Part shown: positions 6,440 to 40,877 of the stretch, in pieces
Layout of the letters: the number at the start of each line of letters is the position of its first letter
Position numbering within the stretch: the first letter of the stretch is position 1
Origin: Escherichia coli
GTDB lineage: Bacteria > Pseudomonadota > Gammaproteobacteria > Enterobacterales > Enterobacteriaceae
Length of the DNA stretch: 42,065 nucleotides
Direction: 5' to 3' (one strand)
NCBI RefSeq assembly: GCF_003334255.1
Contig: NZ_QOWU01000050.1
Notes under the pieces: model-generated
What the model was told of the DNA's origin: nothing
Database searches by the model: none
The model's input: the letters and a program-made list of their open reading frames with translations, nothing else
Program-made: the position numbers and the translations under genes

Positions 6440-8722
<2,283 letters not shown>

Positions 8723-12622: not shown

Positions 12623-12668
12623 CAGTAAAAACATCGGCTTTTTGCTAATAATCCGAGAGATTCTTTTG

Positions 12669-12684
12669 TGTGATGCAAGCCACA
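12669..12684. promoter_or_regulatory. CRP-like site TGTGA-N6-CCACA upstream of serC
   Basis: 9/10 match to the CRP consensus TGTGA-N6-TCACA, about 140 bp upstream of the serC ATG; serC-aroA is reported to be CRP- and Lrp-regulated. Confidence 0.4.
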
Positions 12685-12820
12685 TTTTTGCCCTCAACGG
12701 TTTTACTCATTGCGATGTGTGTCACTGAATGATAAAACCGATAGCCACAGGAATAATGTATTACCTGTGGTCGCAATCGATTGACCGCGGGTTAATAGCA
12801 ACGCAACGTGGTGAGGGGAA

Positions 12821-13909
12821 ATGGCTCAAATCTTCAATTTTAGTTCTGGTCCGGCAATGCTACCGGCAGAGGTGCTTAAACAGGCTCAACAGGAACTGCG
12901 CGACTGGAACGGTCTTGGTACGTCGGTGATGGAAGTGAGTCACCGTGGCAAAGAGTTCATTCAGGTTGCAGAGGAAGCCGAGAAGGATTTTCGCGATCTT
13001 CTTAATGTCCCCTCCAACTACAAGGTATTATTCTGCCATGGCGGTGGTCGCGGTCAGTTTGCTGCGGTACCGCTGAATATTCTCGGTGATAAAACCACCG
13101 CAGATTATGTTGATGCCGGTTACTGGGCGGCAAGTGCCATTAAAGAAGCGAAAAAATACTGCACGCCTAATGTCTTTGACGCCAAAGTGACTGTTGATGG
13201 TCTGCGCGCGGTTAAGCCAATGCGTGAATGGCAACTCTCTGATAATGCGGCTTATATGCATTACTGCCCGAATGAAACCATCGACGGTATCGCCATCGAC
13301 GAGACGCCAGACTTCGGCAAAGATGTGGTGGTCGCCGCCGACTTCTCTTCAACCATTCTTTCCCGTCCGATTGACGTCAGCCGTTATGGTGTAATTTACG
13401 CTGGCGCGCAGAAAAATATCGGCCCGGCTGGCCTGACAATCGTCATCGTTCGTGAAGATTTGCTGGGCAAAGCGAATATCGCGTGTCCGTCGATTCTGGA
13501 TTATTCCATCCTCAACGATAACGGCTCCATGTTTAACACGCCGCCGACATTTGCCTGGTATCTATCTGGTCTGGTCTTTAAATGGCTGAAAGCGAACGGC
13601 GGTGTAGCTGAAATGGATAAAATCAATCAGCAAAAAGCAGAACTGCTATATGGGGTGATTGATAACAGCGATTTCTACCGCAATGACGTGGCGAAAGCTA
13701 ACCGTTCGCGGATGAACGTGCCGTTCCAGTTGGCGGACAGTGCGCTTGACAAATTGTTCCTTGAAGAGTCTTTTGCTGCTGGCCTTCATGCACTGAAAGG
13801 TCACCGTGTGGTCGGCGGAATGCGCGCGTCTATTTATAACGCCATGCCGCTGGAAGGCGTTAAAGCGCTGACAGACTTCATGGTTGAGTTCGAACGCCGT
13901 CACGGCTAA
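12821..13909 (+). CDS. serC: phosphoserine aminotransferase
   Basis: 362-aa ORF ([26 protein letters not shown]...), class-V aminotransferase with PLP-lysine context [12 protein letters not shown]; strong Shine-Dalgarno gaggg. Confidence 0.97.
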
Positions 13910-13928
13910 TGCCGAAATTTTGCTTAAT

Positions 13929-13957
13929 CCCCACAGCCAGCCTGTGGGGTTTTTATT
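13929..13957 (+). terminator. intercistronic terminator-like hairpin between serC and aroA (attenuator)
   Basis: ccccacag-ccagc-ctgtgggg followed by tttttatttct, 20 nt after the serC stop and before the aroA start; serC-aroA is a known mixed-function operon. Confidence 0.6.
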
Positions 13958-13979
13958 TCTGTTGTAGAGAGTTGAGTTC

Positions 13980-15263
13980 ATGGAATCCCTGACGTTACAA
14001 CCCATCGCTCGTGTCGATGGCACTATTAATCTGCCCGGTTCCAAGAGCGTTTCTAACCGCGCTTTATTGCTGGCGGCATTAGCACACGGCAAAACAGTAT
14101 TAACCAATCTGCTGGATAGCGATGACGTGCGCCATATGCTGAATGCATTAACAGCGTTAGGGGTAAGCTATACGCTTTCAGCCGATCGTACGCGTTGCGA
14201 AATTATCGGTAACGGCGGTCCATTACACGCAGAAGGTGCCCTGGAGTTGTTCCTCGGTAACGCCGGAACGGCAATGCGTCCGCTGGCGGCAGCTCTTTGT
14301 CTGGGTAGCAATGATATTGTGCTGACCGGTGAGCCGCGTATGAAAGAACGCCCGATTGGTCATCTGGTGGATGCTCTGCGCCTGGGCGGGGCGAAGATCA
14401 CTTACCTGGAACAAGAAAATTATCCGCCGTTGCGTTTACAGGGCGGCTTTACCGGCGGCAACGTTGACGTTGATGGCTCCGTTTCCAGCCAATTCCTCAC
14501 CGCACTGTTAATGACTGCGCCTCTTGCGCCGGAAGATACGGTGATTCGTATTAAAGGCGATCTGGTTTCTAAACCTTATATCGACATCACACTCAATCTG
14601 ATGAAGACGTTTGGTGTTGAAATTGAAAATCAGCACTATCAACAATTTGTCGTAAAAGGCGGGCAGTCTTATCAGTCTCCGGGTACTTATTTGGTCGAAG
14701 GCGATGCATCTTCGGCTTCTTACTTTCTGGCAGCAGCAGCAATCAAAGGCGGCACTGTAAAAGTGACCGGTATTGGACGTAACAGTATGCAGGGTGATAT
14801 TCGCTTTGCTGATGTGCTGGAAAAAATGGGCGCGACCATTTGCTGGGGCGATGATTATATTTCCTGCACGCGTGGTGAACTGAACGCTATTGATATGGAT
14901 ATGAACCATATTCCCGATGCGGCGATGACCATTGCCACGGCGGCGTTATTTGCAAAAGGCACCACCACGCTGCGCAATATCTATAACTGGCGTGTTAAAG
15001 AAACCGATCGCCTGTTTGCGATGGCAACAGAACTGCGTAAAGTCGGTGCGGAAGTAGAAGAGGGGCACGATTACATTCGTATCACTCCACCGGAAAAACT
15101 GAACTTTGCCGAGATCGCGACATACAATGATCACCGGATGGCGATGTGTTTCTCGCTGGTGGCGTTGTCAGATACACCAGTGACGATTCTTGATCCCAAA
15201 TGCACGGCCAAAACATTTCCGGATTATTTCGAGCAGCTGGCGCGGATTAGCCAGGCAGCCTGA
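13980..15263 (+). CDS. aroA: 3-phosphoshikimate 1-carboxyvinyltransferase (EPSP synthase)
   Basis: 427-aa ORF with the class I EPSPS motif [13 protein letters not shown]. Confidence 0.97.
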
Positions 15264-39528: not shown

Positions 39529-39626
39529 GCCGGATGCGGCACGAGCGCCTTATCCGGCCTACAAAATCGTGCAAATTCAAAATATTGCAGGGGACGCGTA
39601 GGCCTGATAAGCGTAGCGCATCAGGC
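39529..39626. repeat. BIME: two inverted REP (repetitive extragenic palindromic) units
   Basis: gccggatgcggcacgagcgccttatccggcctac (39529-39562) and inverted copy gtaggcctgataagcgtagcgcatcaggc (39598-39626) match the REP consensus family as I recall it; located between convergent gloC and aspC. Confidence 0.75.
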
Positions 39627-39686: not shown

Positions 39687-40877
39687 TTACAGCACTGCCA
39701 CAATCGCTTCGCACAGCGGAGCCATGTTATCTGGTGTCATCCCGGCCACATTTACGCGACCAGAAGCAACCGCATATACGCCAAACTCTTCGCGCAGACG
39801 CAGCACTTGTTCTTTTGTCAGGCCACTGAAGGAGAACATGCCGTTCTGTTTGATGATAAAGCTGAAGTCGCGGTTTGCGCCTTTTTCCTGCAGCGTATTG
39901 ACGAACAACTGACGCATACGCTGAATACGCTGGCGCATATCAGTCAGCTCTTGTTCCCAAATCGCACGTAACGCATCGTTGCTCAGGATGGTGGCAACAA
40001 CAGAAGCGCCGTGTGCTGGTGGGTTAGAGTAGTTAGCGCGAATCGCCGCTTTCATTTGGCTGAATGCGCGATCAACGGTTTCACTGTCGGCAGCAACCAG
40101 AGTACAAGCGCCAACACGCTCGTTGTACAGGCCAAAGTTTTTAGAGTAGGAACTGGCAACAATCAGCTCTTTATGCATAGCCGCGAAAGCGCGCAGTCCT
40201 TCAGCATCTTCTTCCAGACCACGGGCAAAACCCTGGTAAGCGAAGTCAAACAGCGGTAACCAGCCTTTCTCAACGGAGAGTTGTGCCAGTGTTTGCCATT
40301 GTTCCAGCGTAGGGTCGATACCGGTTGGGTTATGGCAGCAGCCATGGAACAGCACTACGTCGCCAGCCTGAGCTTCATTCAGGCTGTTAATCAGTGCATC
40401 GAAGTCAAGAGTGTGATTTTCCGCATCATAATAAGCGTATTCACGAACTTCCAGACCTGCAGAGTTAAAGACGCTCTTATGGTTCGGCCAGCTTGGGTTG
40501 CTCACCCACACACGCTTAACGCTGGTATTTTTTGCCAAGAAATCGGCAGCCACGCGTAGTGCGCCAGTGCCCCCCGGAGTCTGTGCCGTGCGAGCACGTT
40601 TGTCATTGATCAGGGCGCTACCTTTACCAAACAGCAGTTCCTGAGTGCAGCGACCAAATTCAGGGATGCCGTCAATGCCGAGGTAATTTTTGGTGGTTTC
40701 ATTTTCGAGCAGATACTGTTCAGCCTTTTTCACGCTGGTCAGTACCGGGGTTTTGCCCGTCTCATCTTTATAGACACCAATCCCGAGGTTAATTTTGCCG
40801 GGACGTTCATCGGCACGAAACAGATCGGCCAGGCCCAGAATCGGGTCGGCAGGAGCGGCGGTAATGTTCTCAAACAT
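39687..40877 (-). CDS. aspC: aspartate aminotransferase
   Basis: 396-aa ORF ([46 protein letters not shown]...), PLP-lysine context [14 protein letters not shown]. Confidence 0.97.

Follow-up and report, generated by a model that had tools for sequence, protein, structure and literature searches.

The 5' stem-loop of ompA slows RNase E-dependent mRNA decay. At sigma-70 promoters with CRP sites at class-I-like upstream positions, a site near -71.5 usually activates transcription. Inside operons, partial terminators such as that between dapA and bamC, described in the SMRT-Cappable-seq paper (Yan et al. 2018, PMC6131387), combine a G+C-rich stem and a U-tract in sense orientation between cotranscribed genes, and read-through feeds the downstream gene. 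Here, we compare the region around serC of Escherichia coli with these systems. In our reading, to which we give a probability of about 0.9, serC and aroA are controlled by three unrelated and ordinary elements, namely a CRP site, a promoter with its leader and a leaky terminator, and the short core that two hairpins on either side of serC have in common is meaningless.

The serC-aroA locus

The stretch of DNA analysed (42,065 nt; the window) is collinear with K-12 MG1655 944,833-986,897, from dmsC to ompF, and a coordinate in NC_000913.3 equals the window position plus 944,832 (offset verified). The 2-kb region around serC shows 100% identity to E. coli chromosomes, is found in all complete E. 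coli genomes (5426 of 5426) and is annotated as ycaP-serC-aroA. The coding sequence of serC, for phosphoserine/phosphohydroxythreonine aminotransferase, lies at 12821-13909 on the plus strand according to both its open reading frame and the annotation. After a spacer of 70 nt it is followed on the same strand by the annotated coding sequence of aroA (13980-15263), which is probably expressed through terminator read-through. In the 4 kb around serC, MG1655 and the window differ at 16 positions, every one of them within coding sequence, and therefore both intergenic regions are identical to those of K-12.

For comparison, the serC locus was taken from 80 Enterobacteriaceae species, and 81 sequences were examined in the case of the terminator. 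An earlier note on this DNA had pointed out three elements around serC, a CRP-like site and an inverted repeat upstream and a terminator-like hairpin downstream, and a check of the sequence confirmed their positions to the base.

Termination between serC and aroA

The spacer contains, on the plus strand, a stem-loop at 13929-13949 that consists of CCCCACAG (13929-13936), the loop CCAGC and CTGTGGGG (13942-13949; RNA CUGUGGGG), with a stem of 8 bp, 6 of them G-C, and a loop of 5 nt. The T-tract TTTTTATTT (13950-13958; RNA UUUUUAUUU) is located directly 3' of the stem on the same strand. The structure begins 19 nt 3' of the serC stop codon and was the top match of a terminator scan. The hairpin folds with -14.1 kcal/mol (z = -3.6), and it is the hairpin itself that stands out, while an 81-nt fold of the whole spacer is like that of shuffled sequences (z = -0.83). 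On the opposite strand no U-tract follows the stem, and therefore the terminator is unidirectional.

Each of the 81 Enterobacteriaceae sequences carries the hairpin and its T-tract, at a distance of 17-24 nt from the serC stop codon. The element is also found in 5426 of 5426 E. coli genomes, where the median is one copy per genome. In the alignment of 76 distinct sequences, 98% of the stem cells are paired, two-sided changes occur in 4 of the 8 pairs (41 cells), and the T positions of the U-tract are at least 90% conserved. The observed pairing and covariation were reached by none of 500 shuffles, and pairing was 37-58% in slid registers. At the fifth pair of the stem, 51 sequences have G-C and 22 have A-U, indicating that selection keeps the structure and not the sequence CACAG.

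A 3' end within this structure is found in a published full-length transcript dataset. The SMRT-Cappable-seq data (PMC6131387) include a transcript that covers only b0907 and extends over 957,578-958,786, corresponding to window 12746-13954, so that the last nucleotide of the serC-only RNA is the fifth U past the stem. In the supplements of Adams 2021, the 3'-UTR valve paper, Conway 2014 and TERMITe, 3' ends of serC were not found. The downstream element is a genuine Rho-independent terminator, in which all the sequence-level features of such a terminator are combined with a 3' end mapped in vivo. The hairpin at 13929-13957, which had been called terminator-like, is thus borne out by a structure conserved in 81 of 81 sequences, by covariation and by the published RNA end at 13954. 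In the Enterobacteriaceae sequences, no conserved upstream alternative that might act as an anti-terminator was seen, and the 19-24 nt that separate the stem from the stop codon are free to vary. Judged from this sequence comparison, the terminator looks constitutive rather than regulated.

The same hairpin might instead serve mainly as an RNA-stability or processing element, blocking an exonuclease or marking a processing site, and have little to do with stopping the polymerase. A stable 3' hairpin does protect the mRNA upstream of it, and steady-state 3' ends alone do not tell whether the polymerase terminated or the RNA was trimmed back to a hairpin. However, a pure stability element has no need of the U-tract that directly follows this hairpin with its T positions conserved at 90% or more, the RNA end 5 nt past the stem in the U-run is the canonical position of intrinsic termination, and SMRT-Cappable-seq captures primary 5'-triphosphate transcripts. 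We consider it very improbable that stability or processing is the main role, although the two roles are not mutually exclusive.

Termination at this site is partial. The aroA gene is cotranscribed with serC, and both mRNAs respond alike to GcvB. A promoter scan found no promoter-like site in the 70-nt spacer, and the sole start assigned to aroA by Kim et al. 2012 is a weak one of 5 reads inside serC. Since aroA is cotranscribed in spite of a real terminator, the terminator must be leaky. Part of the transcripts would stop near 13954 and the remainder would read through into aroA, so that one promoter would yield more serC than aroA message. Man, Pease and Winkler reportedly described this terminator in 1997 and put the share of serC transcripts ending there at 80-90%, and Duncan and Coggins are said to have described its structure in 1986. 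The leaky terminator is probably how aroA is expressed below serC, with the fraction terminated taken from the literature of 1994-1997. The proposal that aroA is attenuated relative to serC can therefore be kept as far as a partial stop is concerned, while the extent of the attenuation is inferred. If the terminator is partial, destruction of the stem by changing CTGTGGGG to CTCACGGG should lift aroA mRNA to the level of serC.

In all these respects the serC-aroA terminator resembles the dapA-bamC class: it has the same G+C-rich stem, U-tract and sense orientation between cotranscribed genes, its RNA ends within the U-run, and the downstream gene would be fed by read-through. Nothing sets it apart from that class.

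CRP site and promoter upstream of serC

The core of the CRP-cAMP site, TGTGATGCAAGCCACA (12669-12684), is made up of TGTGA (12669-12673), the spacer TGCAAG and CCACA (12680-12684), and its centre lies 70.5 bp 5' of the transcription start and 144.5 bp 5' of the serC ATG. It matches the consensus TGTGA-N6-TCACA at 9 of 10 positions, with one mismatch. The pattern TGTGA-N7-CACA occurs once in the 42-kb window against an expected 0.47, a count that is not significant alone, and the site is accepted as real because of its conservation and the ChIP data, not because of the motif count.

A match is found at the same place in 73 of the 80 Enterobacteriaceae loci. Among these 73, TGTGA, C13 and C15 are invariant and A16 is kept in 72, while every position of the spacer varies freely; three Cedecea-type loci carry the perfect consensus. 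Relative to the equivalent of the start site, the centre is located at -70.5 in 67 loci and at -71.5 in 6. In enteroaggregative E. coli 042, a CRP ChIP-seq peak has this same 16-mer as its assigned motif, at -144.5 from the start codon, and the motif is flagged there as known to RegulonDB. This peak is among the weakest in the table, and the gene-name columns of its row look shifted. The paper on strain 042 includes serC in its count of regulatory regions of MG1655 to which RegulonDB assigns CRP as a regulatory factor, and genomic SELEX recovered serC among the known CRP targets. RegulonDB also lists serC and aroA as targets of Lrp. Taken together, TGTGA-N6-CCACA is a CRP site by motif, conservation, phasing and occupancy, and its description as CRP-like has been substantiated by the conserved half-sites, the fixed phase, the ChIP-seq motif and the SELEX result.

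The site is like those at class-I-like positions upstream of sigma-70 promoters in its core, in its footprint of a dimeric site and in its centre at -70.5/-71.5. Unlike the activation usually exerted from near -71.5, the effect of CRP at serC was reportedly negative in the work of Lim et al. in 1994 and Man et al. in 1997, and the latter are said to have regarded the repression as probably indirect. Antagonism with Lrp is a possible mechanism. We infer the direction of the CRP effect from this literature of 1994-1997. In the mechanism proposed here, cAMP would modulate, through the CRP site at -70.5, a promoter that also depends on Lrp.

The start of serC transcription has been mapped in two published datasets, which agree within 1 nt (12746/12747). 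The supplement of Kim et al. 2012 gives a start at 956,802 (U00096.2) with a 74-nt 5' UTR and 92 reads, and its upstream 51-mer, ending in ...GATAGCCA, places the start at window 12747, and SMRT-Cappable-seq (Yan et al. 2018, PMC6131387) gives 957,578 (NC_000913.3), or window 12746. We use 12747 on the plus strand, the A of CCACAGG, which leaves a leader of 74 nt. An extended -10 element, TG-A-TAAAAC (TGATAAAAC; 12730-12738, plus strand), fits this start and ends 8 nt 5' of it; TG(A/G)TAAAAC is found in 80 of 80 loci. The hexamer TTGCGA (12710-12715, plus strand), 17 bp from the -10, is the probable -35 element, as suggested by the start site and by the presence of TTGCGR/TTGCAG at the 17-bp spacing in 73 of 80 loci. 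From a promoter of the form TTGCGA-17 bp-TGATAAAAC, transcription of serC would thus begin at A12747, within CCACAGG.

A consensus scan had proposed another promoter, ATGATA-17-AATAAT (12729-12757), which would place the inverted repeat described below around the -10. This candidate was rejected on the +1 at 12746/12747 in both datasets, and it is also disfavoured by conservation, the conserved hexamers being those that fit the mapped start.

The repeat across the transcription start

A perfect 7-bp palindrome, CCACAGG (12745-12751)-N12-CCTGTGG (12764-12770), spans 12745-12770, or -2 to +24. Counted from +1 at 12747, the left arm covers -2 to +5 and the right arm +18 to +24. The former falls within the conserved start region CGATAKCCACAGG, where 52 of 80 loci have CCACAG, and the latter belongs to another structure. 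The 74-nt leader is predicted to fold into a stem-loop (12759-12797, plus strand) whose core helix pairs CCUGUGGUC (12764-12772) with GACCGCGGG (12783-12791), with CCTGTGG in its 5' strand; the fold reaches -18.0 kcal/mol (z = -4.1). One arm is thus the region where transcription starts, and the other is the 5' strand of the leader hairpin. They complement each other by accident, and their standing side by side as an inverted repeat is due to chance.

The variation of the two arms agrees with this. At this position the right arm CCTGTGG is found only in the window sequence (1 of 80 loci). Within E. coli, the ST131 type has the left arm CCACTGG (A12749T), which breaks the palindrome; strains N96 and E1 have the right arm CCCGCGG, and in E1 the left arm is also changed, to CGACAGG. 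The L002 lineage has the right arm CCTGCGG, and E. albertii differs again. In none of these variants (ST131, N96, E1, L002 and E. albertii) was a compensating change found in the other arm. The two half-sites are not conserved together in related genomes, as those of an operator palindrome should be. The claim that the upstream repeat is conserved therefore fails, with a right arm confined to the window sequence among 80 loci and arms that vary within E. coli uncompensated.

The leader hairpin itself is lineage-specific. Within Escherichia, 95.5% of its cells are paired and the changes are mostly one-sided. In L002, three substitutions spread over both strands retain all nine core pairs, but the covariation in seven Escherichia sequences is not separable from shuffles, 242 of 500 of which scored as high. 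Hairpins that are not homologous to it occupy the same leader position in Salmonella, Citrobacter, Raoultella, Kluyvera (including Kluyvera georgiana) and others, and 47 of 80 loci have a short leader of 36-39 nt without a hairpin. Like the ompA mRNA, the serC leader thus carries a stable hairpin near its 5' end in several genera. It differs from the ompA case in that it begins at +13 and not at +1, is missing in 47 of 80 loci and is non-homologous between genera, and its role in stability is hypothetical.

A function of the repeat in E. coli may be imagined in two forms, as a lineage-specific operator at +1 to +24, for example the target of the cAMP-dependent repressor postulated in 1997, or as an RNA hairpin at the 5' end, in competition with the leader stem-loop. 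As a perfect 7-bp palindrome the repeat lies across the transcription start, where operators are classically found, and the region contains three mutually complementary segments, CCACAGG, CCTGTGG and CCGCGGG. The upstream region is single-copy (median of one per genome over 5426 E. coli genomes), and a 60-nt stretch here is identical in 3751 of the 4877 matching genomes among the 5426 searched. The 22-nt 5'-terminal hairpin ACAGG...CCUGU has a fold of -5.2 kcal/mol (z = -2.4) when taken alone and could form transiently during transcription. However, only 5 of the 7 bases of the left arm are in the transcript, and in the predicted fold of the full leader the arm-arm helix forms with a probability of 0.003 and the leader hairpin with one of about 0.997. 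All observed variants break the palindrome and none is compensated, and the left arm is conserved in genera without any right arm. A function of the repeat in either form is hence very unlikely.

A narrower version limited to K-12-type E. coli, in which CCACAGG (at the start), CCTGTGG (+18) and CCGCGGG (+39) form an alternative-structure switch or the palindrome forms a +1 to +24 operator, seems to us a shade less likely still. If it were true, the switch, specific to this lineage, could adjust the stability of serC mRNA or the access of the sRNA GcvB, and the operator could be the target of the repressor suggested in 1997.

The core shared by the two hairpins

The chance origin of the upstream repeat leaves its likeness to the terminator, with which it shares CCACAG/CTGTGG. 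The window contains 20 copies of CCACAG against 17.8 expected, and 6 of CCACAGG against 3.7 expected. It has 66 perfect inverted repeats (arms of at least 7 nt, loops of 3-20 nt). These form 149 pairs whose members are no more than 1.5 kb apart, and a common 6-mer core is found in 3 of the pairs, compared with 0.9 expected from the window-wide rate; the pair at serC is one of the 3, and the other two are plainly unrelated sequences.

A coincidence of this kind is rare a priori, and it would be non-trivial if the post hoc choice of the pair were ignored.

A single DNA- or RNA-binding or processing factor that recognizes these arms and brackets serC had also been considered. Both palindromes are perfect and carry the same 6-nt core 1.2 kb apart, and shuffling of the upstream spacer recreated an inverted repeat sharing the 6-mer in only 15 of 20,000 cases, a frequency that applies to a pair picked post hoc from 42 kb. 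Against a common motif, the window has no excess of the 6-mer, and two other neighbouring repeat pairs share a 6-mer as well. The two elements also do not change together: in 36 loci the left arm CCACAG is retained upstream while the terminator lacks CACAG, its core having become CGCAG/CTGCG, CACGG/CCGTG, CGCG/CGCG or CGAAG/CTTCG, and only K-12-type E. coli has the right arm upstream. Each element is single-copy per genome, and this, with a 6-mer at the expected frequency, is not the pattern of a dispersed repeat family (REP/BIME-like). No Rfam family was found at threshold, and the best match under permissive settings was a chance one to ClpQY_promoter, which reached 16.7 bits where the gathering score is 42. 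Given this lack of co-variation, a common motif is close to refuted and is the least probable of all the explanations considered.

The CCACAG core common to both hairpins is a coincidence with no function of its own. The earlier note had left two possibilities for the shared arm, and the coincidental one stands, while a common binding or processing motif does not, as the elements do not co-vary. Joint conservation of both palindromes across enterobacteria is not seen, with the terminator in 81 of 81 sequences and the upstream right arm in 1 of 80 loci. The two observations on which the note had staked its proposal come apart in the same way: termination at 13929-13957 is seen, and conservation of the upstream repeat is absent.

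Conclusions

The functional parts of this locus were already known from the literature of 1986-1997 and from RegulonDB. What is added here is only confirmation by comparison of 80 Enterobacteriaceae species, in which the terminator is kept as a structure and the CRP element keeps the phasing of a dimer site. The analysis also gives reason for caution, in that chance yields short palindrome cores common to neighbouring hairpins at this genome scale.

The serC-aroA operon couples the synthesis of serine and vitamin B6 with that of aromatic amino acids. In this operon, the leaky terminator would allow unequal amounts of the enzymes to be made from one promoter, and CRP and Lrp would link that promoter to the carbon and amino acid status of the cell.

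Length classes of the serC leader

Across the serC loci of 80 Enterobacteriaceae species, the leader (equivalent to 12747–12820 of the window, the 74 nt between the transcription start and the serC CDS) falls into discrete length classes. The short class (36–39 nt; 47 of 80 loci) is without a hairpin, in the middle class (54–90 nt; 30 of 80) a CA-rich stretch comes after a stem-loop located at about +12 to +50, and the remaining 3 of 80 leaders are 186–187 nt long. The stem-loops of the 30 middle-class leaders are non-homologous and each is genus-specific, and the hairpin of the longer leader classes looks like a module that has been replaced recurrently. The CA-rich stretch on the 3' side of the stem-loop in the 54–90-nt class reads AACAAYRCAAC. 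Pairing of GcvB with the serC 5' UTR has been reported in the literature, and this stretch is a candidate for that pairing.

In L050 (Raoultella terrigena) and in L053 and L060, two loci titled Enterobacter sp., the serC leader carries an insertion of about 130 nt, located downstream of the promoter and ahead of the start codon.

Surroundings of the leader and copies of the region

The block CAGC-AAAAT-TCGGTTTT, located within 12623–12668 just past the ycaP stop, is kept in many genera and adjoins the CRP site (12669–12684) on its upstream side. It may belong to the Lrp-binding region or be a 3' element of ycaP.

Concerning CRP, in the serC row of the ChIP-seq supplementary table of PMC12360894 the MG1655-gene and description columns read "focA / formate transporter", while the label serC stands on a row 3.2 kb downstream of the true serC row (EAEC 042 positions 1,068,899 and 1,072,066 are the rows concerned). 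The gene-label columns appear to be shifted, and the gene labels are therefore unreliable unless motif and offset are checked.

Within serC, Kim et al. (2012) reported a weak transcription start with 5 reads at U00096.2 957,335 (13280 in the window), which they assigned to aroA, giving that gene a leader of 700 nt. The signal may come from a minor promoter inside serC or may be noise.

The ycaP-serC-aroA region is also present on 5 records labelled as plasmid. One of them, the 88-kb NZ_CP134387.1 (E. coli TUM11352), carries it at 94.7% identity with serC annotated as two separate aminotransferase CDS, as would be expected if the contig were mis-assigned or if this were a second, disrupted copy.

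Shared 6-mers and natural alleles of the upstream repeat

By the criterion applied to the serC pair (the upstream repeat and the terminator hairpin at 13929–13949, both with the core CCACAG), two further neighbouring inverted-repeat pairs in the window have a 6-mer core in common. One lies inside pflB (7272–7302 and 8632–8660), and the other combines a REP-like palindrome between gloC and aspC (39602–39626; GGCCTGATAAGCGTAGCGCATCAGGC) with a repeat inside aspC (40364–40386). Both pairs serve as controls for the frequency of 6-mer coincidences like that of the serC pair.

The arms of the upstream repeat (12745–12751 and 12764–12770) vary naturally among the other E. coli sequences compared (L082–L086). 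ST131-type strains carry A12749T, which is +3 of the serC transcript, and strains N96 and E1 have CCCGCGG in place of CCTGTGG, together with partly matching changes at 12784–12788. These natural alleles of the upstream repeat are ready material for experiments.
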